A stretch of DNA of 14,084 bases from Naegleria gruberi (lineage: Eukaryota): NCBI GenBank assembly GCA_000004985.1, contig GG738977.1, one strand, 5' to 3'. Made by a program: the position numbers and the translations under genes. Below are positions 206 to 13,775 of this stretch, piece after piece. Below the pieces are notes generated by a model that worked only from the letters and a program-made list of their open reading frames with translations, had not been told where the DNA came from and made no database searches. Numbering within the stretch: the first letter of the stretch is position 1; every line of letters starts with the position of its first letter.

Positions 206-856
206 TGAATTGGTTTTCATTCTTTTTTCTTTTAATGCTCTAAAGACTAAGGAAAGATGTTGAAAGAAGTTTATCCTCCCTATTTAAAGTGATACAATAA
301 TCCAGTTTTTAAACCTCCCTTTCAGATAGTTTCGTATATTGCATCCATGAAGAGAAAGTTGATAAATACTTCGCATAAGAGATGTTAACCACAGTTTTTT
401 AACGAATACCTGTTCGACTTGTATAGAATTCAAAAACACCAAAAATTTTTAAATTCTTTTTATTCGAATAAACAAACTTCATGAATCTTTCTACAAAAAT
501 GGACAAATTTAAGAAGAGACTGAATATAGAACACAACTCAATGCAGATGAGATGAGGATTTTGTCATACAATTCAAGAACCATTGGCCATATACTCTGAT
601 ACTGTCAAACAGAGAACATGTCAACTGTATTGAAAAAGTTTTCTCAGTTTTTTATTGGTCAACTGTTATCTGGCTACTCTCTCCAACAAACGGCTCCATG
701 AGAGATGTGTTAAGTTCAGGAGAAGACTTACGCTATCTGTCTCCACATTATTCGAAATGAAATTAATTGCCATTGATAATGTTATCAGAATGCTGTTAAT
801 CCTCACCACCCTAACTTTACAAAATATTCTTTACAATCAAATAATTTTAAAAAAAA
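206..856. promoter_or_regulatory. divergent intergenic region between the minus-strand ATG at 205 and the plus-strand ATG at 857 (putative bidirectional promoter)
   Basis: This 651-bp non-coding stretch separates two divergently oriented ORF starts. It is A/T-rich and contains a TATTTAAA-like motif near 281-290. No specific elements were verified. Confidence 0.3.
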
Positions 857-1537
857 ATGTCTGTAAAGGTTGAGCTGATAGATTTTCTTCCGTCCCAATT
901 TACTTCCACTGATGATGATCATCACGATAATAATAATTTAATTAACCTCCTAAAATATAAAATTAATATCATCCCCACCAAACGATACTCTCTCGAATTT
1001 TCATCACTGAATGTTAGTGGTTATTATTCTGCATGGCATGTTGGTCCGAATTGTTTTGATATTGTTCTTTCCAATGATTATTATAGATTTATTGTAACGA
1101 ATGGTTCGGCACTGAGTGTTTTTCCGAGAGCAGAGACAGCTGAAGAGTATGAAAACAAGTTAATTGGAAGGGAGGCCTTGTTTGAAGTTGTGTTTGAGGA
1201 AATTACTTGTTTTAATTGTTTGAAATTGATTAAGGAGAAGGATGAGGAATATATTTATGCATCTACTGATCCATATGTTGTAAAGATTAAGGTTTCTGAT
1301 ATAATGAGGAAGAATCCACTTCTTGTTTGGAAATCTAAAGAAACTTACTATAATATCTGGGGATTGGATGTTATGGGATCCCAACTCTATGTTGTGGATT
1401 ATGAAAAATCAGTTATGATATTAGATCGTGAACATGGAGATCATTTACAATATTTAGATGATGATATTGGGAAAATTGAGGGTGGTGGTTTTGGTATTCA
1501 TTGCTTTTCTGAGAATGAAATATTAATGAGTCATAAT
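857..1537 (+). CDS. hypothetical protein, 5' part (ORF runs into the N gap)
   Basis: The ATG at 857-859 follows an A-run (aaaaaaaaATGtct), which is the recurring start context in this window. From there 226 stop-free codons reach the gap edge at 1537. The protein (…NIWGLDVMGSQLYVVDYEKSVMILDREHGDHLQYLDD…GGGFGIHCFSENEILMSHN) looks vaguely like beta-propeller repeats but I do not recognise it. Confidence 0.55.
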
Positions 1538-4500
1538 NNNNNNNNNNNNNNNNNNNNNNNNNNNNNNNNNNNNNNNNNNNNNNNNNNNNNNNNNNNNNNN
1601 NNNNNNNNNNNNNNNNNNNNNNNNNNNNNNNNNNNNNNNNNNNNNNNNNNNNNNNNNNNNNNNNNNNNNNNNNNNNNNNNNNNNNNNNNNNNNNNNNNNN
1701 NNNNNNNNNNNNNNNNNNNNNNNNNNNNNNNNNNNNNNNNNNNNNNNNNNNNNNNNNNNNNNNNNNNNNNNNNNNNNNNNNNNNNNNNNNNNNNNNNNNN
1801 NNNNNNNNNNNNNNNNNNNNNNNNNNNNNNNNNNNNNNNNNNNNNNNNNNNNNNNNNNNNNNNNNNNNNNNNNNNNNNNNNNNNNNNNNNNNNNNNNNNN
1901 NNNNNNNNNNNNNNNNNNNNNNNNNNNNNNNNNNNNNNNNNNNNNNNNNNNNNNNNNNNNNNNNNNNNNNNNNNNNNNNNNNNNNNNNNNNNNNNNNNNN
2001 NNNNNNNNNNNNNNNNNNNNNNNNNNNNNNNNNNNNNNNNNNNNNNNNNNNNNNNNNNNNNNNNNNNNNNNNNNNNNNNNNNNNNNNNNNNNNNNNNNNN
2101 NNNNNNNNNNNNNNNNNNNNNNNNNNNNNNNNNNNNNNNNNNNNNNNNNNNNNNNNNNNNNNNNNNNNNNNNNNNNNNNNNNNNNNNNNNNNNNNNNNNN
2201 NNNNNNNNNNNNNNNNNNNNNNNNNNNNNNNNNNNNNNNNNNNNNNNNNNNNNNNNNNNNNNNNNNNNNNNNNNNNNNNNNNNNNNNNNNNNNNNNNNNN
2301 NNNNNNNNNNNNNNNNNNNNNNNNNNNNNNNNNNNNNNNNNNNNNNNNNNNNNNNNNNNNNNNNNNNNNNNNNNNNNNNNNNNNNNNNNNNNNNNNNNNN
2401 NNNNNNNNNNNNNNNNNNNNNNNNNNNNNNNNNNNNNNNNNNNNNNNNNNNNNNNNNNNNNNNNNNNNNNNNNNNNNNNNNNNNNNNNNNNNNNNNNNNN
2501 NNNNNNNNNNNNNNNNNNNNNNNNNNNNNNNNNNNNNNNNNNNNNNNNNNNNNNNNNNNNNNNNNNNNNNNNNNNNNNNNNNNNNNNNNNNNNNNNNNNN
2601 NNNNNNNNNNNNNNNNNNNNNNNNNNNNNNNNNNNNNNNNNNNNNNNNNNNNNNNNNNNNNNNNNNNNNNNNNNNNNNNNNNNNNNNNNNNNNNNNNNNN
2701 NNNNNNNNNNNNNNNNNNNNNNNNNNNNNNNNNNNNNNNNNNNNNNNNNNNNNNNNNNNNNNNNNNNNNNNNNNNNNNNNNNNNNNNNNNNNNNNNNNNN
2801 NNNNNNNNNNNNNNNNNNNNNNNNNNNNNNNNNNNNNNNNNNNNNNNNNNNNNNNNNNNNNNNNNNNNNNNNNNNNNNNNNNNNNNNNNNNNNNNNNNNN
2901 NNNNNNNNNNNNNNNNNNNNNNNNNNNNNNNNNNNNNNNNNNNNNNNNNNNNNNNNNNNNNNNNNNNNNNNNNNNNNNNNNNNNNNNNNNNNNNNNNNNN
3001 NNNNNNNNNNNNNNNNNNNNNNNNNNNNNNNNNNNNNNNNNNNNNNNNNNNNNNNNNNNNNNNNNNNNNNNNNNNNNNNNNNNNNNNNNNNNNNNNNNNN
3101 NNNNNNNNNNNNNNNNNNNNNNNNNNNNNNNNNNNNNNNNNNNNNNNNNNNNNNNNNNNNNNNNNNNNNNNNNNNNNNNNNNNNNNNNNNNNNNNNNNNN
3201 NNNNNNNNNNNNNNNNNNNNNNNNNNNNNNNNNNNNNNNNNNNNNNNNNNNNNNNNNNNNNNNNNNNNNNNNNNNNNNNNNNNNNNNNNNNNNNNNNNNN
3301 NNNNNNNNNNNNNNNNNNNNNNNNNNNNNNNNNNNNNNNNNNNNNNNNNNNNNNNNNNNNNNNNNNNNNNNNNNNNNNNNNNNNNNNNNNNNNNNNNNNN
3401 NNNNNNNNNNNNNNNNNNNNNNNNNNNNNNNNNNNNNNNNNNNNNNNNNNNNNNNNNNNNNNNNNNNNNNNNNNNNNNNNNNNNNNNNNNNNNNNNNNNN
3501 NNNNNNNNNNNNNNNNNNNNNNNNNNNNNNNNNNNNNNNNNNNNNNNNNNNNNNNNNNNNNNNNNNNNNNNNNNNNNNNNNNNNNNNNNNNNNNNNNNNN
3601 NNNNNNNNNNNNNNNNNNNNNNNNNNNNNNNNNNNNNNNNNNNNNNNNNNNNNNNNNNNNNNNNNNNNNNNNNNNNNNNNNNNNNNNNNNNNNNNNNNNN
3701 NNNNNNNNNNNNNNNNNNNNNNNNNNNNNNNNNNNNNNNNNNNNNNNNNNNNNNNNNNNNNNNNNNNNNNNNNNNNNNNNNNNNNNNNNNNNNNNNNNNN
3801 NNNNNNNNNNNNNNNNNNNNNNNNNNNNNNNNNNNNNNNNNNNNNNNNNNNNNNNNNNNNNNNNNNNNNNNNNNNNNNNNNNNNNNNNNNNNNNNNNNNN
3901 NNNNNNNNNNNNNNNNNNNNNNNNNNNNNNNNNNNNNNNNNNNNNNNNNNNNNNNNNNNNNNNNNNNNNNNNNNNNNNNNNNNNNNNNNNNNNNNNNNNN
4001 NNNNNNNNNNNNNNNNNNNNNNNNNNNNNNNNNNNNNNNNNNNNNNNNNNNNNNNNNNNNNNNNNNNNNNNNNNNNNNNNNNNNNNNNNNNNNNNNNNNN
4101 NNNNNNNNNNNNNNNNNNNNNNNNNNNNNNNNNNNNNNNNNNNNNNNNNNNNNNNNNNNNNNNNNNNNNNNNNNNNNNNNNNNNNNNNNNNNNNNNNNNN
4201 NNNNNNNNNNNNNNNNNNNNNNNNNNNNNNNNNNNNNNNNNNNNNNNNNNNNNNNNNNNNNNNNNNNNNNNNNNNNNNNNNNNNNNNNNNNNNNNNNNNN
4301 NNNNNNNNNNNNNNNNNNNNNNNNNNNNNNNNNNNNNNNNNNNNNNNNNNNNNNNNNNNNNNNNNNNNNNNNNNNNNNNNNNNNNNNNNNNNNNNNNNNN
4401 NNNNNNNNNNNNNNNNNNNNNNNNNNNNNNNNNNNNNNNNNNNNNNNNNNNNNNNNNNNNNNNNNNNNNNNNNNNNNNNNNNNNNNNNNNNNNNNNNNNN

Positions 4501-6697
4501 NNNNNNNNNNNNNNNNNNNNNNNNNNNNNNNNNNNNNNNNNNNNNNNNNNNNNNNNNNNNNNNNNNNNNNNNNNNNNNNNNNNNNNNNNNNNNNNNNNNN
4601 NNNNNNNNNNNNNNNNNNNNNNNNNNNNNNNNNNNNNNNNNNNNNNNNNNNNNNNNNNNNNNNNNNNNNNNNNNNNNNNNNNNNNNNNNNNNNNNNNNNN
4701 NNNNNNNNNNNNNNNNNNNNNNNNNNNNNNNNNNNNNNNNNNNNNNNNNNNNNNNNNNNNNNNNNNNNNNNNNNNNNNNNNNNNNNNNNNNNNNNNNNNN
4801 NNNNNNNNNNNNNNNNNNNNNNNNNNNNNNNNNNNNNNNNNNNNNNNNNNNNNNNNNNNNNNNNNNNNNNNNNNNNNNNNNNNNNNNNNNNNNNNNNNNN
4901 NNNNNNNNNNNNNNNNNNNNNNNNNNNNNNNNNNNNNNNNNNNNNNNNNNNNNNNNNNNNNNNNNNNNNNNNNNNNNNNNNNNNNNNNNNNNNNNNNNNN
5001 NNNNNNNNNNNNNNNNNNNNNNNNNNNNNNNNNNNNNNNNNNNNNNNNNNNNNNNNNNNNNNNNNNNNNNNNNNNNNNNNNNNNNNNNNNNNNNNNNNNN
5101 NNNNNNNNNNNNNNNNNNNNNNNNNNNNNNNNNNNNNNNNNNNNNNNNNNNNNNNNNNNNNNNNNNNNNNNNNNNNNNNNNNNNNNNNNNNNNNNNNNNN
5201 NNNNNNNNNNNNNNNNNNNNNNNNNNNNNNNNNNNNNNNNNNNNNNNNNNNNNNNNNNNNNNNNNNNNNNNNNNNNNNNNNNNNNNNNNNNNNNNNNNNN
5301 NNNNNNNNNNNNNNNNNNNNNNNNNNNNNNNNNNNNNNNNNNNNNNNNNNNNNNNNNNNNNNNNNNNNNNNNNNNNNNNNNNNNNNNNNNNNNNNNNNNN
5401 NNNNNNNNNNNNNNNNNNNNNNNNNNNNNNNNNNNNNNNNNNNNNNNNNNNNNNNNNNNNNNNNNNNNNNNNNNNNNNNNNNNNNNNNNNNNNNNNNNNN
5501 NNNNNNNNNNNNNNNNNNNNNNNNNNNNNNNNNNNNNNNNNNNNNNNNNNNNNNNNNNNNNNNNNNNNNNNNNNNNNNNNNNNNNNNNNNNNNNNNNNNN
5601 NNNNNNNNNNNNNNNNNNNNNNNNNNNNNNNNNNNNNNNNNNNNNNNNNNNNNNNNNNNNNNNNNNNNNNNNNNNNNNNNNNNNNNNNNNNNNNNNNNNN
5701 NNNNNNNNNNNNNNNNNNNNNNNNNNNNNNNNNNNNNNNNNNNNNNNNNNNNNNNNNNNNNNNNNNNNNNNNNNNNNNNNNNNNNNNNNNNNNNNNNNNN
5801 NNNNNNNNNNNNNNNNNNNNNNNNNNNNNNNNNNNNNNNNNNNNNNNNNNNNNNNNNNNNNNNNNNNNNNNNNNNNNNNNNNNNNNNNNNNNNNNNNNNN
5901 NNNNNNNNNNNNNNNNNNNNNNNNNNNNNNNNNNNNNNNNNNNNNNNNNNNNNNNNNNNNNNNNNNNNNNNNNNNNNNNNNNNNNNNNNNNNNNNNNNNN
6001 NNNNNNNNNNNNNNNNNNNNNNNNNNNNNNNNNNNNNNNNNNNNNNNNNNNNNNNNNNNNNNNNNNNNNNNNNNNNNNNNNNNNNNNNNNNNNNNNNNNN
6101 NNNNNNNNNNNNNNNNNNNNNNNNNNNNNNNNNNNNNNNNNNNNNNNNNNNNNNNNNNNNNNNNNNNNNNNNNNNNNNNNNNNNNNNNNNNNNNNNNNNN
6201 NNNNNNNNNNNNNNNNNNNNNNNNNNNNNNNNNNNNNNNNNNNNNNNNNNNNNNNNNNNNNNNNNNNNNNNNNNNNNNNNNNNNNNNNNNNNNNNNNNNN
6301 NNNNNNNNNNNNNNNNNNNNNNNNNNNNNNNNNNNNNNNNNNNNNNNNNNNNNNNNNNNNNNNNNNNNNNNNNNNNNNNNNNNNNNNNNNNNNNNNNNNN
6401 NNNNNNNNNNNNNNNNNNNNNNNNNNNNNNNNNNNNNNNNNNNNNNNNNNNNNNNNNNNNNNNNNNNNNNNNNNNNNNNNNNNNNNNNNNNNNNNNNNNN
6501 NNNNNNNNNNNNNNNNNNNNNNNNNNNNNNNNNNNNNNNNNNNNNNNNNNNNNNNNNNNNNNNNNNNNNNNNNNNNNNNNNNNNNNNNNNNNNNNNNNNN
6601 NNNNNNNNNNNNNNNNNNNNNNNNNNNNNNNNNNNNNNNNNNNNNNNNNNNNNNNNNNNNNNNNNNNNNNNNNNNNNNNNNNNNNNNNNNNNNNNNN
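1538..6697. other. run of 5160 N (assembly gap or masked sequence)
   Basis: The Ns are directly visible. The 1963-aa plus ORF and the 1723-aa minus ORF in the track are artifacts of translating N as X. Confidence 1.
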
Positions 6698-6838: not shown

Positions 6839-7762
6839 TCAGTACACTTCAAGATCAATTAAATATTTCAGTTCAGTACAGATATATTCCTTGCCTATTT
6901 TGCCAATGTTATTATTCTTAATATTGAGCTGTGTTAATTGTTTCATTTCACAAATGTATTTAGCTCCTGCTTCACTTATTTCAACACCTGAAATACTTAA
7001 TCTAGTCAATTGATTCAATTTCTTAATATGTTTAGCTCCTTCATCACCAATTACATTCTCACCAATGTTAAGATCAGTTAATTGTTTCATTTCGCTAATG
7101 TATTTAACCCCCTCAACTCTGACATTGTTATAACTAATAGAAAGCTTGGTTAAATGCTTCAATTGACTAATGTATTTGGCACCTTCAACACCAATGTAAT
7201 TGTTTCCAATTTTGAGATTTTTCAATTGTTTCAATTCACTAATGTGTTTTGCACCCTCGTCTCCAATATTATTAAAACAAATATCTAGGTTTGTCAATTG
7301 TTTCAATTGACTAATGTATTTGGCTCCTTCCACTCCAACAAAATTACCACTCACTCCAAGAAAAGTTAATTGTTTCAATTGACTGATGTGTTTAGCCCCT
7401 TCAACACCAATATCATTAAAACAAGCTCGAAGATGTGATAAACGTTTCATCAGACCAAGTATTTGATAATCAAATTCGACAGTTCCAAATCTCACCACCA
7501 AAGTTGCAATATTTTGTAAAAATCGACCTTTCAAATTGTTACTATAACATCGAAAACAAAGTCTTGATCTTTCCAATATGACATTCAACCACTGTTTCGA
7601 AACTAATGCACAATTCAATACAATGAATTTAAAATCATCATAGAAGGATAAAATTTCACCCAGAATATCATCATTGAAAACTTCATGAGTGAGTTTCGTC
7701 TTTTTTGTTTCAGATCCAACATTTGCTTCATCAACAAGAGTTTCAATTGTTCGTTTTATCAT
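6839..7762 (-). CDS. F-box domain protein with 8 tandem RNI-like leucine-rich repeats
   Basis: The track ORF 6839..7789 begins at a TTG. The first in-frame ATG is at 7762..7760, in the context aaaaaaATGata. The N-terminus has an F-box-like motif, DDILGEILSFYDDFKFIVLNCALVSKQW (compare the consensus LPxEILxxIFSYLxxxDLxxxxLVCKRW). Eight 24-aa units of the form LxxLxxLxIxxNxIGxEGAKxISxLKQ follow, which is the ribonuclease-inhibitor type of LRR. The stop codon TGA lies at 6841..6839. Confidence 0.75.
   Translation of the reverse strand: MIKRTIETLVDEANVGSETKKTKLTHEVFNDDILGEILSFYDDFKFIVLNCALVSKQWLNVILERSRLCFRCYSNNLKGRFLQNIATLVVRFGTVEFDYQILGLMKRLSHLRACFNDIGVEGAKHISQLKQLTFLGVSGNFVGVEGAKYISQLKQLTNLDICFNNIGDEGAKHISELKQLKNLKIGNNYIGVEGAKYISQLKHLTKLSISYNNVRVEGVKYISEMKQLTDLNIGENVIGDEGAKHIKKLNQLTRLSISGVEISEAGAKYICEMKQLTQLNIKNNNIGKIGKEYICTELKYLIDLEVY
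6865..7441 (-). repeat. 72-bp periodic tandem repeat block within the coding sequence (8 LRR units)
   Basis: The DNA-level periodicity is visible as recurring caattgtttcaattgactaatgtatttggc...cc-ttc-acaccaat blocks. Each block matches one 24-aa LRR unit of the F-box/LRR protein. Confidence 0.75.
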
Positions 7763-7832
7763 TTTTTTAAAAAGTTTCAAATCATTCAAATGTCCAGATT
7801 TGGATTTATATTTTAAATGGCTTTACAAAACG

Positions 7833-10328
7833 NNNNNNNNNNNNNNNNNNNNNNNNNNNNNNNNNNNNNNNNNNNNNNNNNNNNNNNNNNNNNNNNNNNN
7901 NNNNNNNNNNNNNNNNNNNNNNNNNNNNNNNNNNNNNNNNNNNNNNNNNNNNNNNNNNNNNNNNNNNNNNNNNNNNNNNNNNNNNNNNNNNNNNNNNNNN
8001 NNNNNNNNNNNNNNNNNNNNNNNNNNNNNNNNNNNNNNNNNNNNNNNNNNNNNNNNNNNNNNNNNNNNNNNNNNNNNNNNNNNNNNNNNNNNNNNNNNNN
8101 NNNNNNNNNNNNNNNNNNNNNNNNNNNNNNNNNNNNNNNNNNNNNNNNNNNNNNNNNNNNNNNNNNNNNNNNNNNNNNNNNNNNNNNNNNNNNNNNNNNN
8201 NNNNNNNNNNNNNNNNNNNNNNNNNNNNNNNNNNNNNNNNNNNNNNNNNNNNNNNNNNNNNNNNNNNNNNNNNNNNNNNNNNNNNNNNNNNNNNNNNNNN
8301 NNNNNNNNNNNNNNNNNNNNNNNNNNNNNNNNNNNNNNNNNNNNNNNNNNNNNNNNNNNNNNNNNNNNNNNNNNNNNNNNNNNNNNNNNNNNNNNNNNNN
8401 NNNNNNNNNNNNNNNNNNNNNNNNNNNNNNNNNNNNNNNNNNNNNNNNNNNNNNNNNNNNNNNNNNNNNNNNNNNNNNNNNNNNNNNNNNNNNNNNNNNN
8501 NNNNNNNNNNNNNNNNNNNNNNNNNNNNNNNNNNNNNNNNNNNNNNNNNNNNNNNNNNNNNNNNNNNNNNNNNNNNNNNNNNNNNNNNNNNNNNNNNNNN
8601 NNNNNNNNNNNNNNNNNNNNNNNNNNNNNNNNNNNNNNNNNNNNNNNNNNNNNNNNNNNNNNNNNNNNNNNNNNNNNNNNNNNNNNNNNNNNNNNNNNNN
8701 NNNNNNNNNNNNNNNNNNNNNNNNNNNNNNNNNNNNNNNNNNNNNNNNNNNNNNNNNNNNNNNNNNNNNNNNNNNNNNNNNNNNNNNNNNNNNNNNNNNN
8801 NNNNNNNNNNNNNNNNNNNNNNNNNNNNNNNNNNNNNNNNNNNNNNNNNNNNNNNNNNNNNNNNNNNNNNNNNNNNNNNNNNNNNNNNNNNNNNNNNNNN
8901 NNNNNNNNNNNNNNNNNNNNNNNNNNNNNNNNNNNNNNNNNNNNNNNNNNNNNNNNNNNNNNNNNNNNNNNNNNNNNNNNNNNNNNNNNNNNNNNNNNNN
9001 NNNNNNNNNNNNNNNNNNNNNNNNNNNNNNNNNNNNNNNNNNNNNNNNNNNNNNNNNNNNNNNNNNNNNNNNNNNNNNNNNNNNNNNNNNNNNNNNNNNN
9101 NNNNNNNNNNNNNNNNNNNNNNNNNNNNNNNNNNNNNNNNNNNNNNNNNNNNNNNNNNNNNNNNNNNNNNNNNNNNNNNNNNNNNNNNNNNNNNNNNNNN
9201 NNNNNNNNNNNNNNNNNNNNNNNNNNNNNNNNNNNNNNNNNNNNNNNNNNNNNNNNNNNNNNNNNNNNNNNNNNNNNNNNNNNNNNNNNNNNNNNNNNNN
9301 NNNNNNNNNNNNNNNNNNNNNNNNNNNNNNNNNNNNNNNNNNNNNNNNNNNNNNNNNNNNNNNNNNNNNNNNNNNNNNNNNNNNNNNNNNNNNNNNNNNN
9401 NNNNNNNNNNNNNNNNNNNNNNNNNNNNNNNNNNNNNNNNNNNNNNNNNNNNNNNNNNNNNNNNNNNNNNNNNNNNNNNNNNNNNNNNNNNNNNNNNNNN
9501 NNNNNNNNNNNNNNNNNNNNNNNNNNNNNNNNNNNNNNNNNNNNNNNNNNNNNNNNNNNNNNNNNNNNNNNNNNNNNNNNNNNNNNNNNNNNNNNNNNNN
9601 NNNNNNNNNNNNNNNNNNNNNNNNNNNNNNNNNNNNNNNNNNNNNNNNNNNNNNNNNNNNNNNNNNNNNNNNNNNNNNNNNNNNNNNNNNNNNNNNNNNN
9701 NNNNNNNNNNNNNNNNNNNNNNNNNNNNNNNNNNNNNNNNNNNNNNNNNNNNNNNNNNNNNNNNNNNNNNNNNNNNNNNNNNNNNNNNNNNNNNNNNNNN
9801 NNNNNNNNNNNNNNNNNNNNNNNNNNNNNNNNNNNNNNNNNNNNNNNNNNNNNNNNNNNNNNNNNNNNNNNNNNNNNNNNNNNNNNNNNNNNNNNNNNNN
9901 NNNNNNNNNNNNNNNNNNNNNNNNNNNNNNNNNNNNNNNNNNNNNNNNNNNNNNNNNNNNNNNNNNNNNNNNNNNNNNNNNNNNNNNNNNNNNNNNNNNN
10001 NNNNNNNNNNNNNNNNNNNNNNNNNNNNNNNNNNNNNNNNNNNNNNNNNNNNNNNNNNNNNNNNNNNNNNNNNNNNNNNNNNNNNNNNNNNNNNNNNNNN
10101 NNNNNNNNNNNNNNNNNNNNNNNNNNNNNNNNNNNNNNNNNNNNNNNNNNNNNNNNNNNNNNNNNNNNNNNNNNNNNNNNNNNNNNNNNNNNNNNNNNNN
10201 NNNNNNNNNNNNNNNNNNNNNNNNNNNNNNNNNNNNNNNNNNNNNNNNNNNNNNNNNNNNNNNNNNNNNNNNNNNNNNNNNNNNNNNNNNNNNNNNNNNN
10301 NNNNNNNNNNNNNNNNNNNNNNNNNNNN
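7833..10328. other. run of 2496 N (assembly gap or masked sequence)
   Basis: The Ns are directly visible. The 903/841/895-aa ORFs in the track that span it are artifacts. Confidence 1.
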
Positions 10329-10609
10329 AACACCAATATTAAATATACGAGAAATCCTTCCTGCTGCTCTTTAATAAAACATAGCCATAATTTTTCTTGA
10401 CCATATGTGAGTTGAATACTTGCTCTATATCTTGATTTTGCAATTGTAAACCATTGCTTGGAAATTAGGCAACAATTCAATAAAACATCTTTCCAAGCTA
10501 GCCATTGCATAATTTCTTCACAAATATCATCGGGGAATAAGTTATCCTACTCCTTTCCTTCCATCATGATTGAATTACGATCAAATTCTTCTCTCATTCG
10601 CTTCTTCAT
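10329..10609 (-). CDS. F-box domain protein, paralog of the 6839..7762 gene; N-terminal 93 codons up to the gap, with one in-frame TAG (possible pseudogene or sequencing error)
   Basis: The ATG is at 10609..10607, in the context aaaaaaaATGaag. It reads MKKRMREEFDRNSIMMEGKE, then TAG at 10549..10547, then continues in the same frame as DNLFPDDICEEIMQWLAWKDVLLNCCLISKQWFTIAKS... The F-box motif spans the stop and the N-terminus (M-K/I-KR...) matches the neighbouring gene, so both sides belong to one reading frame. The track ORF 7823..10510 begins at the internal ATG of ...EEIMQW. The 3' part of the gene is hidden in the gap. Confidence 0.55.
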
Positions 10610-10739
10610 TTTTTTTAAATAAAAATTAATAAAAATAGATAGTATTGTTTAAAATAAGTGAAATATTATAGATAAATTATTATTTATTATTGTAAAATTA
10701 ACTATTTCAAAATAAACAAGAAATAAGGTGTTAGATTGT

Positions 10740-10743
10740 AAAA
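10740..10743 (-). terminator. Pol III T-run (TTTT) about 7 nt downstream of the tRNA-Lys 3' end
   Basis: After the tRNA 3' end the minus strand reads ATTCTATTTTACAATC. Four Ts is the minimal Pol III terminator. Confidence 0.45.
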
Positions 10744-10749
10744 TAGAAT

Positions 10750-10822
10750 CGCCCACCGTGGGGGTCGAACCCACGACCACAAGGTTAAGAGCCTTGCGCT
10801 CTACCGACTGAGCTAGACGGGC
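10750..10822 (-). tRNA. tRNA-Lys (anticodon CTT)
   Basis: The minus strand reads GCCCGTCTAGCTCAGTCGGTAGAGCGCAAGGCTCTTAACCTTGTGGTCGTGGGTTCGAACCCCCACGGTGGGCG (73 nt). It has a 7-bp acceptor stem with two G-U pairs, a GCTC/GAGC D stem, a CAAGG/CCTTG anticodon stem with loop CTCTTAA, a GTGGG/CCCAC T stem with a TTCGAAC loop, and discriminator G. A box (TAGCTCAGTCGG) and B box (GGTTCGAACCC) are present. It is nearly identical to eukaryotic tRNA-Lys(CUU). Confidence 0.9.
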
Positions 10823-10898
10823 TACATTGATTAACAAAACGTTTCCTTAATAACGATTTCTATGGTAAAATTCAAGTTTACTAATTGATTAACAAATT

Positions 10899-11284
10899 TC
10901 AATGTTCTGCAATTCTACAATAATCAGATTTTGATACATCAACTGCAATTCCTATTTTGTTGAATTCCTCTTCAATTTGTTGAATCACGATATCCCTATT
11001 CGGATTATTTTCAAGTTGAATATTATTATATCTCAAATCAACAAATTCTAACAATGTGAATTCTTTTCTCTGTAATTGGATTTGCTCTGCAATAAATAGA
11101 GCATCATTTTCTGTTATTGAACCTGATAATGATAAATCCAATACTCGAACTCTTTTTGCAATATTTGATTTCATAATAAGTGGTAAGAGTTGCGGAATAT
11201 TATAAGTATTTCTCAGACCAAAATATTCTGATGTTGGATACTTTCCATTCTCTGATTCTGAAAGCAGTTCTGTTAAATTTTTTT
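10899..11284 (-). CDS. terminal exon of a spliced gene; LRR-like C-terminal region (…IPQLLPLIMKSNIAKRVRVLDLSLSGSITENDALFIAEQIQLQRKEFTLLEFVDLRYNNIQ…AEH*)
   Basis: The track ORF 10899..11174 is open upstream in the same frame to a TAA at roughly 11307..11305. Three in-phase CAG acceptors lie upstream (exon start at 11284, 11269 or 11257). The candidate at 11257 has a TTTAAC branch-like motif 12 nt upstream. The stop is TGA at 10901..10899. Exon start is uncertain by about 30 nt. Confidence 0.55.
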
Positions 11285-11472
11285 CTGTGACAGGTCGATC
11301 ATTTTACTTCTTATTTGACAGGGTGACCCAGCTAGATAGAGAAATTTAAGATTTTTGAAATATTTTAGTATTGAAATAGAAGTATAACAGGAATTTCGTA
11401 CATAATCATTGGTTGACTTGGTATTTTCTACATAAAATTTTTTCAAACTTGAAAGAAGAAGAATAAACTAAC
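11285..11472 (-). other. putative intron (GTTAGT...CAG), 188-215 nt depending on acceptor choice
   Basis: The donor GTTAGT at 11472..11467 sits exactly where the upstream ORF hits TAG (the TAG overlaps the donor). Exon phase is 1 and matches the phase of the downstream open frame, so splicing joins ...ISMRG to E(K/L)... without a frameshift. Confidence 0.45.
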
Positions 11473-11731
11473 CTCGCATGGAAATAATATTATCCAACTC
11501 AATTGGTTCGTAAGCTTCCTGTTGTTCTATTATATAATTATTAAACGATTCATGAAAGTAATTAGAACTTGGATAGCTCAACGATAATTCTTCAAAAGTT
11601 TTCAATTTTTCAATAATGTCCTGTGTTTCCTTGACCAATTCAACTGCTGGTCTCATTTTCCCATCTCCTATTTGTGCACTTTTCAATTCATTTTTAAAGA
11701 ATTTTAATATATCCAATCTGTCTTTGATAAT
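11473..11731 (-). CDS. internal exon of the same spliced gene (…KIIKDRLDILKFFKNELKSAQIGDGKMRPAVELVKETQDIIEKLKTFEELSLSYPSSNYFHESFNNYIIEQQEAYEPIELDNIISMR-G)
   Basis: The frame is open from the TAA at 11782..11780 down to the donor at 11473. A candidate acceptor aaaaag|ATT at 11732 is preceded by a pyrimidine-rich tract. The 5' boundary is uncertain. Confidence 0.4.
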
Positions 11732-11951
11732 CTTTTTGATAATATTCAACAGTAACAAATAATATAGGAGGAGAGATTTTTAAATGAAATGTTTGTAGGA
11801 GAGAGGAGAGCAAAATCGGACAATTCTCGCTCCAATCATCACCATCAAACGTATCATTGTGCTGATGATAGTGATTATTCATTTTTTTTGATTTTTGTAA
11901 ATTAATAATCATATCCTTATTGCAATGGTAGAATAAGGTTTGACTCATCAC
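11694..11951 (-). CDS. possible 5' exon or ORF (MMSQTLFYHCNKDMIINLQKSKKMNNHYHQHNDTFDGDDWSENCPILLSSLLQ…), relationship to the downstream exons unresolved
   Basis: This is an 85-codon ORF starting at the ATGATG at 11951. It overlaps the internal exon by about 38 nt in a different frame. I could not find a convincing donor, so whether it is exon 1 of the same gene is unknown. Confidence 0.25.
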   Translation of the reverse strand: MMSQTLFYHCNKDMIINLQKSKKMNNHYHQHNDTFDGDDWSENCPILLSSLLQTFHLKISPPILFVTVEYYQKDYQRQIGYIKIL

Positions 11952-12012
11952 TTGGTTTTGTTCACTGTGAATATGGAATTGGGCTGATATTACACATTTT
12001 GAGGTAATGAAT

Positions 12013-12130
12013 GGCTACGGCCATATAATGATGAATGCACCTCATCCCGTCCGATTTGAGAAGTTAAGCATCGTCGAGCCACATCAGTACTGAGGTTGGG
12101 ACAACTTGGGAACCTGTGGTGCTGTAGTCT
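12013..12130 (+). rRNA. 5S ribosomal RNA gene
   Basis: The plus strand reads GGCTACGGCCATATAATGATGAATGCACCTCATCCCGTCCGATTTGAGAAGTTAAGCATCGTCGAGCCACATCAGTACTGAGGTTGGGACAACTTGGGAACCTGTGGTGCTGTAGTCT. It matches the eukaryotic 5S consensus blocks (GGCCATA, CCCGTCCGAT..GAAGTTAAGC, AGTACT, GGGAA..GGTGCTGTAG) and is collinear with S. cerevisiae 5S. Helix I pairs its 5' and 3' ends. Length is about 118 nt, with ends uncertain by about 2 nt. Confidence 0.85.
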
Positions 12131-12136
12131 TTTTTT
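12130..12136 (+). terminator. Pol III terminator (T7) at the 5S 3' end
   Basis: A ttttttt run lies immediately after ...GCTGTAGTC. Confidence 0.65.
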
Positions 12137-12152
12137 CATTTCAAAATTTGTT

Positions 12153-12195
12153 GCAGATTAACAGTCTGACGCTCTACCGACTGAGCTAGACGGGC
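12153..12195 (-). pseudogene. tRNA-Lys(UUU)-like 5' fragment (tRNA positions 1-43); anticodon loop reads GTT; no T arm or 3' acceptor strand
   Basis: The minus strand reads GCCCGTCTAGCTCAGTCGGTAGAGCGTCAGACTGTTAATCTGC. Positions 1-26 are identical to the intact tRNA-Lys at 10750..10822. The anticodon arm TCAGA-CTGTTAA-TCTG(C) resembles tRNA-Lys(UUU) (TCAGA-CTTTTAA-TCTGA) with a T-to-G change. Downstream sequence (AACAAATTTTGAAATGAAAAAAA) lacks any TTCGA T-loop and runs into the antisense tail of the 5S gene. Confidence 0.6.
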
Positions 12196-12209
12196 TACAT
12201 TTGATGACC

Positions 12210-12920
12210 TTAATTGTCCCTAATAATAGCTTGTTGGAAGAGTTTTTCTCTATCATAGTGAACTGAGGAAACATCCATAATTTCCTTGCTCTTTTCCAAA
12301 AGGGAAGAAGCTGTTGTAGTACGGCAAATGTAAAGAAGTTTTTTACAAAGGTCCAAATCATAGATAATACATCTTTCTGGATACATCAATTTCACACATT
12401 GGACAACCATATTTTCATAAGCATCCAAATCAGAGTCTAATTTAGAAATAGATTGAATGGTGTATGAGGAGAGTCTGAGCATTAAAAGTTTGTCTTGATT
12501 ACTTTGAGTTGATTCATATTCCTTCAATTTAGATTCAATTGCCGATTCAATTGATGAAATATCCTTCTTGTATTTCTTTGTTGATTCATTGAGAACTTGT
12601 TTGGCAACCTTGCAATATTCTCTGTTTACCAAAACAATATTAATGAGAACCTTCATCAACTTGGTATATTCAAGAGAGTATTCACTCTTCATCATTTTCA
12701 TATTTTCGCAATGTACTTTGTACAAGTTGAAGGCAAATTCGATATCATCATATGTAATTGGCTTTTCCTAGTCGCTTTCTTGCCACATGGTATGCAATTT
12801 CTTAGCAACTTGATAAACACGTAAATCTTCTTGACGATATTTGAGGAGAGGAGTATAAGATTCAGCAGCTCCCTGTTCGACGTGGTGAAGTGCTTGACGG
12901 ATTTTTGATTGTGTTCTCAT
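12210..12920 (-). CDS. hypothetical protein (236 codons) interrupted by one in-frame TAG
   Basis: The ATG is at 12920..12918. It reads MRTQSKIRQALHHVEQGAAESYTPLLKYRQEDLRVYQVAKKLHTMWQESD, then TAG at 12770..12768, then continues in the same frame as EKPITYDDIEFAFNLYKVHCENMKMMKSEYSLEYTKLMK…QQAIIRDN and ends with TAA at 12212..12210. The track ORF 12210..12725 is the part after the TAG and begins at a TTG. No family was recognised. Confidence 0.55.
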
Positions 12921-13014
12921 ATCACCTATTAGCTTCGAACTGTGAACTCAAAGTTCATACTATTATTTAAACTTTTCAAATTATATCATTTATTTTCAAA
13001 AAAACAAAGAAACA
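12921..13014. promoter_or_regulatory. 94-bp divergent intergenic region between the minus ATG at 12920 and the plus ATG at 13015 (putative bidirectional promoter)
   Basis: The region is A/T-rich and the plus-strand start sits in the context aaacaaagaaacaATG. No elements were verified. Confidence 0.3.
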
Positions 13015-13680
13015 ATGATCTCTTCATCCACCTCTAAGCAACCACATCTTGAAACCATTGATCCAAACAACATTTGGGTTATCAAGAATTTATTCTCCAC
13101 AGAAGAATGTTCGAAACTTTTGAAAGAAAGTGAAGAAATTGGTTATGGAGAAGCCCCAATTTCAACAGGTCCTACTTCATCTACCATTATGAAAGATGTT
13201 AGAAATAACTCTCGTGCCATGATTGATAAAAAGCAATATTCTGACATGCTTTACAAAAAATTAGAGAAATACCTGCCACAGAATGTGTCATCACTCAAAG
13301 TAGGTCCACAAGATGGTTTTAAATTGTGTGGTCTCAATGAAAGAATTCGTTTCTACAAGTATGCAGCTGGAGAATATTTTGCTCCTCATTATGATGGTTG
13401 TTTTCAGAGACCAACTCTTAATGTGGAAATTAATGGAAAGAAAATGAAAGTTGTGGAAAGATCTTTCATTACAGTTCTCTTATATTTGAATGATGTGGAG
13501 AGTGGAGGTGAAACTAACTTTCTCAATTCGAGATGTGAAATAATTCATAGTGTGAAACCACAAGCAGGTCAAGTCTTGATGTTTGTTCATTCGAATTATC
13601 ATGAAGGAAGTGTGTTGAGTGATCCAAATGAATTTAAATATGTCATGAGAACAGACGTCATGTATCGTAAAGAAAAATAA
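13015..13680 (+). CDS. prolyl 4-hydroxylase-like 2-oxoglutarate/Fe(II)-dependent oxygenase (P4Hc-type), apparently soluble
   Basis: This is a 221-aa ORF from the ATG at 13015 to the TAA at 13678-13680. It has the P4H signature layout: an N-terminal IWVIKNLFSTEECSKLL (the P4H-typical ...nfLs.eEC..li...), an HxD iron site in RFYKYAAGEYFAPHYDG, TVLLYLNDVESGGETNF (the classic LYLNDVEEGGET block) and a distal His in GQVLMFVHSNYHEG. The N-terminus MISSSTSKQPHLETIDPNN is hydrophilic, with no signal peptide or transmembrane segment evident. Confidence 0.8.
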   Translation: MISSSTSKQPHLETIDPNNIWVIKNLFSTEECSKLLKESEEIGYGEAPISTGPTSSTIMKDVRNNSRAMIDKKQYSDMLYKKLEKYLPQNVSSLKVGPQDGFKLCGLNERIRFYKYAAGEYFAPHYDGCFQRPTLNVEINGKKMKVVERSFITVLLYLNDVESGGETNFLNSRCEIIHSVKPQAGQVLMFVHSNYHEGSVLSDPNEFKYVMRTDVMYRKEK

Positions 13681-13775
13681 ACCTCTCCTCAGGTAAATTA
13701 AGAATTGTTGATGATACCCTTATTTCATTAATTTGTAAAAGAAAAATGAAAAATTTTATTAAAAATTAGAAAAAA

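Follow-up and report, generated by a model that had tools for sequence, protein, structure and literature searches.

The stretch of DNA analysed here, referred to below as the window, is the complete 14,084-bp scaffold GG738977.1 of the Naegleria gruberi NEG-M assembly. It is eukaryotic nuclear DNA with a G+C content of about 30%, and assembly gaps make up 54% of it, in two runs of N (1538-6697, 5,160 nt, and 7833-10328, 2,496 nt). Beyond the second gap lie the 5' part of a gene of the F-box/leucine-rich repeat (LRR) family, a tRNA-Lys gene, an LRR-like gene, a 5S rRNA gene, a truncated tRNA-like half, an open reading frame (ORF) at 12210..12920 on the minus strand, and a gene for a 2OG-Fe(II) (2-oxoglutarate-Fe(II)) oxygenase. 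Two of these, the F-box copy and the 12210..12920 ORF, are each interrupted by a single in-frame TAG. An earlier interpretation made from the letters of the window (hereafter the sequence-only reading) had placed these TAGs at 10549..10547 and 12770..12768 on the minus strand, with the reading frame open on either side, and had offered three explanations for them: a pair of pseudogenes, errors of assembly or sequencing, or a reassigned or context-dependent decoding of UAG. Both TAGs were confirmed in the sequence and the flanking translations match: MKKRMREEFDRNSIMMEGKE precedes and DNLFPDDICEEIMQWLAWKDVLLNCCLISKQW follows the TAG of the F-box copy, and ...KKLHTMWQESD precedes and EKPITYDDIEFAFNLYKVHC... 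follows the second one. Judged from the comparison of both sites with intact relatives, this is not a stop-codon reassignment. The first two explanations stand, and the third falls on the different sense codons found at the two sites (tyrosine and serine) and on the other damage that both copies carry.

In the case of the second site, the sequence-only reading had treated 12210..12920 as a gene, and had judged a pseudogene less plausible here than for the F-box copy. The reverse holds: this is the clearest pseudogene of the two. On the alignment with its parent, 12210..12920 is a truncated internal fragment of the gene encoding P0126 (EFC46284.1), a protein of 369 aa from NEG-M that is encoded on a 530-kb scaffold, and is not a gene. 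The parent DNA was taken from ENA contig L001, in which the gene occupies positions 261-1370. Window positions 12907..12225 align with positions 613..1295 of that contig over 683 nt, without gaps and with 99.56% identity, and the identity collapses sharply beyond both limits. The parent gene is intronless; missing from the fragment are the first 119 or so codons of the parent coding sequence (CDS) and its last 25. The mismatches between the two are a TCG to TAG change (at 12769), a synonymous change (at 12741) and a change from Arg to Ser (at 12288). The alignment of fragment and parent DNA at the TAG site reads GCGACTAGGAAAAG versus GCGACTCGGAAAAG, and P0126 reads ...HTMWQESDSEKPITYDD... (...QESDSEKPITY...) across it. 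Orthologues of 360-396 aa are present in N. fowleri, N. lovaniensis, Willaertia magna and an environmental Naegleria, and they overhang the window ORF by some 130-150 residues on the N-terminal side and by about 25 residues on the C-terminal side. The position of the TAG is occupied by serine in P0126 and in every one of these orthologues except that of Willaertia, whose alignment is less clear there; the N. fowleri and N. lovaniensis proteins and P0122 are among the sequences with serine.

The annotated protein at this site has the same origin. P0124 (EFC35943.1), which belongs to the same 90% cluster as P0126 and was the only N. gruberi match listed in our protein search, matches a part of the 12210..12920 ORF exactly. 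It corresponds to a gene model of 163 aa (12210-12701, minus strand) that starts at the first methionine past the TAG, and the same model has been annotated on two NEG-M scaffolds (EFC35943.1 and EFC35681.1). Read against the parent gene, this "predicted protein" is an ORF-calling artefact inside a truncated fragment. The parent itself bears the NCBI name "methyl-accepting chemotaxis protein". That name looks unfounded, since P0126 has no Pfam match and its conservation is confined to Naegleria and Willaertia. Genes of the P0126 type adjoin a Rad21/Rec8 gene in four species or contigs.

The first site lies in the F-box copy, of which 281 nt are retained beside the second gap. A Pfam F-box match (residues 25-61, E = 7.7e-4) begins just past the TAG, as the sequence-only reading had stated. 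An intact homologue is present on L005, a 1,492-nt ENA contig from sample ERZ929261 that was reached via P0128, a member of the oxygenase cluster. The F-box gene of L005 (478..2) has a stop-free translation of 159 aa that runs into LRR_6 repeats, like the neighbouring gene at 6839..7789 in the window. Over the retained 281 nt, a TAC to TAG change and a 1-nt deletion are the sole differences between the two coding sequences. At the first of these differences the alignment reads GGAGTAGGAT versus GGAGTACGAT, and the L005 translation reads ...EGKEYDNLFPDD... across it. The second is an extra A in L005 at 10355, within an AA run, and was not visible to the sequence-only reading, nor was the fragment nature of 12210..12920. 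At this point the L005 frame reads ...QQEGISRIFNIGVDSFRV... and continues on into the LRR repeats, whereas that of the window reads ...QQEGFLVYLILV. Because the L005 frame continues into repeats of the LRR_6 type, the frame that the window follows past the deletion is the wrong one. The window copy carries two lesions within 200 nt, and these lie 219 nt (TAG) and 26 nt (deletion) from the gap edge.

The removal of either TAG by an intron was considered and rejected, in agreement with the sequence-only reading. The 42-nt candidate at the second site is conserved coding sequence: it encodes VAKKLHTMWQESDS, which is conserved at the protein level in N. fowleri, N. lovaniensis and Willaertia. The candidate intron at the first site would delete part of the F-box.

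The L005 contig also shows how the locus is arranged where the fragment is absent. By blastn, L005 700-1492 corresponds to window 12927-13710 (96%), L005 197-664 to window 10329-10828 (91.8%) and L005 618-689 to window 12155-12226 (84.7%). Its order is compact, with the F-box gene, the tRNA-Lys gene and the oxygenase gene following one another. Compared with L005, the window contains two additional blocks between the tRNA-Lys and oxygenase genes. One is the gene fragment at 12225-12907. The other, of about 1.3 kb (approximately 10861-12154), holds the 5S rRNA gene together with the LRR-like gene, which is spread over several frame segments. The intact tRNA-Lys gene borders this block on one side, and the tRNA-like 5' half with similar upstream sequence on the other. 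The spacer of the oxygenase gene is uninterrupted in L005 exactly where the window has the fragment: L005 has ...GAAGCAATATGAAAACAC / GTTATTAAGG... and the window ...GATATGAGAACAC / AAT / CAAAAATCCG..., where the slashes mark the junctions. One junction of the fragment contains some 3 nt of filler, the other an ambiguous TATT/ATT overlap, and neither a target-site duplication nor a poly-A tail nor transposon ends were observed. The ATG that opens the apparent ORF is fortuitous on this comparison, since it comes from the spacer and not from the captured gene. As a whole, the region resembles a patchwork in which duplicated pieces surround genes of the type transcribed by RNA polymerase III (Pol III).

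The coordinates of the features are collected in Table 1. The oxygenase ORF is 98% identical to N. gruberi P0001, its next-best matches are from other Naegleria species, and P0127 (EFC35940.1, NEG-M) is identical to it. The three versions of this protein, from the window, from a 304-kb NEG-M scaffold (P0001) and from L005 (P0128), differ pairwise by 3-5 residues. Going by these comparisons, the window may represent a second, diverged haplotype of the locus found on the 304-kb scaffold, or a segmental duplication of it that took place recently. An origin from a giant virus, a bacterial symbiont or a ciliate had also been weighed at first, in view of the AT-richness, the tRNA genes and the F-box/LRR genes of the window, and was rejected on the match to P0001.

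With regard to the RNA genes, the sequence of the tRNA-Lys (CUU) gene, which does not encode a suppressor tRNA, is the same in L005. The truncated tRNA-like half directly follows the gene fragment, lacks the T arm and was not called by ARAGORN. It shares its exact D-arm sequence with the nearby tRNA-Lys (CUU), and some 30 nt upstream of it are similar to the sequence upstream of the tRNA gene in L005. This suggests that a duplicated or split tRNA locus bounds the block of about 1.3 kb. The 5S rRNA gene stands tail-to-tail with this half, about 100 nt from the captured gene fragment, and a T7 run that resembles a Pol III terminator follows the 5S rRNA gene.

The LRR-like gene (10899-11882, minus strand) is split over three frame segments, has no Pfam match and changes frame at an A7 run near 11290. 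Its frame structure may reflect several short introns, or the gene may be another decayed member of the family. A third TAG, at 11470..11468, lies in this gene; it coincides with a GTTAGT donor, as the sequence-only reading had observed, and stands at the start of a plausible 45-nt intron. Near the other end of the window, the ORF at 857-1537 (plus strand) is the start of a long ORF that runs for 227 aa before it enters the 5.2-kb assembly gap, and it gave no Pfam match.

Table 1. Features of the window discussed in the text, with their positions, strands and the basis of each assignment.
Feature	Position	Strand	Basis
F-box/LRR paralogue, intact, used as comparator; ends in TGA	6839..7789	-	LRR_6, E = 2.9e-21
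F-box/LRR gene copy, 5' part; remainder lost in gap 7833-10328	10329..10609	-	Pfam F-box, L005 alignment
1-nt frame-shifting deletion, GGAAGGAATTT (L005) to GGAAGGATTT (window)	10354..10356	-	L005 alignment
In-frame TAG of the F-box copy; TAC (Tyr) in intact homologue	10547..10549	-	Window sequence and L005 alignment
tRNA-Lys (CUU) gene, intact, between F-box copy and inserted block	10750..10822	-	66.4 bits
Putative 45-nt intron (GTTAGT...T-rich...TGTAG) holding the third TAG	11428..11472	-	Sequence reading and frame analysis; predicted splicing
5S rRNA gene, complete	12013..12130	+	RF00001, 90.6 bits, E = 7.7e-19, model positions 1-120
Truncated tRNA-like 5' half, tRNA-Lys type, GTT at anticodon position	12150..12195	-	Rfam tRNA, 25 bits, sub-threshold
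683-nt internal fragment of 369-aa N. gruberi gene P0126 (EFC46284.1)	12225..12907	-	99.56% identity, three mismatches
In-frame TAG of the gene fragment; TCG (Ser) in parent	12768..12770	-	Parent-DNA alignment, mismatch at 12769
Fortuitous ATG opening the apparent ORF; spacer-derived, not from the captured gene	12918..12920	-	L005 spacer comparison
2OG-Fe(II) oxygenase gene, intact, 221 aa; ends in TAA	13015..13680	+	PF13640

A UAG that is reassigned, or decoded as sense depending on its context, with both genes being functional, would fit the features that are apparent from the window: both interruptions are TAG, the frame is open on either side of each, and the four clear gene ends are TAA or TGA, as the sequence-only reading had pointed out and as we found for all four. 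It should be noted, however, that avoidance of TAG as a terminator cannot be concluded from as few as four ends, which weigh little because TAA predominates at gene ends in every Naegleria locus examined. The coincidence of two TAGs is within what chance would give, and its statistical weight is low. When all single-base routes to each stop codon were counted in the intact parent sequences, the probability that a random nonsense change produces TAG was 0.28 for the F-box gene and 0.31 for the other gene, and the probability that both changes produce TAG was about 0.085. Furthermore, the codons found at the two sites in the near-identical intact copies differ, TAC (Tyr) in one and TCG (Ser) in the other, each of them one base away from TAG; no consistent single amino acid is found at the TAG positions across the homologues, and UAG would thus have no single meaning. 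Neither TAG lies inside an otherwise undamaged gene, since the F-box copy has its frameshift and the fragment is missing about 119 codons for the N-terminal part and 25 for the C-terminal part. A reassigned code has two defining features that could be tested here, a single amino acid at TAG and the presence of TAG in intact genes; as both are absent, the case falls outside that class. Further observations bear on the same question. No in-frame TAG was found in about 1,700 codons of intact CDS, which comprise the oxygenase, F-box/LRR and 857..1537 ORFs of the window, two genes of L001 and two genes of L005. TAG ends one of the nine annotated N. fowleri genes in L006 (17114-18913), and it also ends the RasGEF gene in the Naegleria sp. 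contig L002 (5797-8334). The C-termini of RasGEF orthologues were compared for a conserved TAG terminator, and were uninformative due to their low-complexity tails. A search for a tRNA with a CUA anticodon, which the sequence-only reading had proposed for the genome, was run on the window and found none there, only the tRNA-Lys (CUU) and the GTT half; the latter was considered as a suppressor and rejected, given the GTT at its anticodon position and its missing T arm. Our search of the literature on stop-codon usage or the genetic code of Naegleria found nothing directly on point. N. gruberi is annotated with the standard code. Taken together, we regard a sense-decoded UAG as an explanation with almost no chance of being correct.

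Programmed readthrough of the UAG in the F-box copy, yielding a low level of full-length protein, has a single point in its favor, which is that the ORF continues past the TAG into a recognisable F-box. Such a protein would still lose its LRR part to the frameshift that lies 190 nt downstream, the intact homologue has a tyrosine at the site, and we know of no readthrough-promoting context that corresponds to UAG-GAU-AAC. We therefore consider readthrough highly improbable. A sequencing or assembly error would mean that the TAGs, or at least that of the F-box copy, are base-calling mistakes in low-coverage Sanger sequence, and that the true genome has TAC and TCG. On the one hand, more than half of the scaffold is gap, and a substitution together with an indel in an AA run, so close to a contig end and with no other difference from L005, is typical of read tails. 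On the other hand, the gap or scaffold end nearest to the TAG of the 12210..12920 fragment is over 1.3 kb away. Because the same 163-aa model has been annotated on two NEG-M scaffolds, we infer, indirectly, that this stop is real and is present in independent reads. Moreover, the status of 12210..12920 as a truncated fragment is unaffected by such errors, and a fragment located between adjacent points of a spacer is unlike the product of a chimeric read. As an explanation of the TAGs, error is thus a possible but rather doubtful one.

The explanation that we favor, with a probability of roughly 0.93, is that the two TAGs arose as ordinary nonsense changes, that the duplicates carrying them are non-functional and lie in a rearranged and poorly assembled region of the NEG-M genome, and that neither TAG is decoded. 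In terms of the individual copies, the alignments indicate that the 12210..12920 fragment is a pseudogene fragment and that the F-box copy is either a pseudogene or the result of read-end error. Each has a near-identical intact parent, P0126 for the fragment and the F-box gene of L005, from another sample, for the F-box copy, and each has disabling features beyond its TAG. The alignments directly show which sense codons the intact copies carry, the loss of both ends of the fragment, the shifted frame of the F-box copy and the point of insertion; the course of events that we propose would be as follows. A 683-nt internal piece of the intact, intronless 369-aa gene would have been copied into the spacer between the 2OG oxygenase gene and the tRNA; our best guess for the route is the capture of a fragment during the repair of a DNA break (filler DNA). 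The copy is without a promoter-proximal start and without the N-terminal and C-terminal coding parts of its parent, and has since gained the TCG to TAG change and two further substitutions. The other copy, a member of the large F-box/LRR family, bears its TAC to TAG change and 1-nt deletion either as real inactivating mutations or as base-calling errors at a low-coverage contig end.

Some observations weigh against this explanation, or at least against parts of it. For the F-box copy, a read-end error is as good an account as real decay, because both lesions fall in the terminal 220 nt beside the gap and the rest of the CDS is identical. L005 comes from another sample (ERZ929261) and is a close relative or an allele, possibly of a different genome. 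A word-indexed protein search with the 93-aa F-box fragment gave no candidate for an intact NEG-M copy, and an exhaustive phmmer search with the 73 residues past the F-box TAG gave five weak family matches and no near-identical copy. Similarly, exact-pattern scans across each TAG, with the sense alternative allowed, gave no match among JGI metagenome or GTDB genome contigs. In the case of the fragment, the three differences from its parent are too few for a test of relaxed selection. Finally, the evidence for TAG as a terminator consists of a handful of genes in related Naegleria, and the N. gruberi sample is small and has no TAG end in it. A more far-reaching possibility is that an active process in Naegleria captures pieces of genes beside Pol III genes (tRNA and 5S rRNA genes), leading to recurrent shuffling; in a weaker variant, the F-box TAG would be real and leaky. 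The annotation of the same fragment on two scaffolds bears on such recurrent capture, which we nevertheless consider very unlikely.

If the two TAGs are nonsense changes in duplicate copies, the result is chiefly a negative one: a candidate for a variant code in one heterolobosean amoeba dissolves on comparison with intact relatives. It also has practical consequences. EFC35943.1/EFC35681.1 (163 aa) should not be treated as a gene. Furthermore, small gap-rich NEG-M scaffolds carry rearranged duplicates, and the in-frame stops present there are unfit for inferring recoding.

What is found at this locus is of a class already known, that of duplicated gene fragments and pseudogenes, possibly with assembly-end errors in addition. 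The likeness to a nuclear reassignment of UAG is limited to a superficial sign, an in-frame TAG with an open frame. Where a code has been reassigned, intact conserved genes often contain in-frame TAG, which stands for one amino acid, is read by a CUA tRNA, and is rare or absent as a terminator, whereas at this locus one site answers to Tyr and the other to Ser, both copies have further damage, and their intact counterparts are free of in-frame TAG. Such codes include UAR to Gln in many ciliates, diplomonads and some green algae, and reported changes of UAG only in a rhizarian and in the fornicate Iotanema. A change of UAR to Glu has been described in Blastocrithidia (PMC12153298). The F-box copy also resembles the low-quality ends of Sanger shotgun contigs, in that a homopolymer indel and a substitution occur within about 220 nt of a gap while the rest is identical, but contig-end error leaves the truncated fragment at 12225-12907 unexplained. 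In comparison with the filler fragments captured at repaired double-strand breaks, the mechanism of capture is one that we infer here, and the ambiguous microhomology or filler at the junctions does not exceed 3-4 nt; since no intron interrupts the copied part of the parent, a fragment derived from DNA and one derived from cDNA would look the same. In its other features the locus agrees with the duplicated gene fragments and the unitary or duplicated pseudogenes of eukaryotes, including such filler DNA: a near-identical intact parent elsewhere in the genome, sharp homology borders inside the CDS, no start or end of its own, a location in a spacer, and a premature stop, which is joined by a frameshift in the F-box copy.

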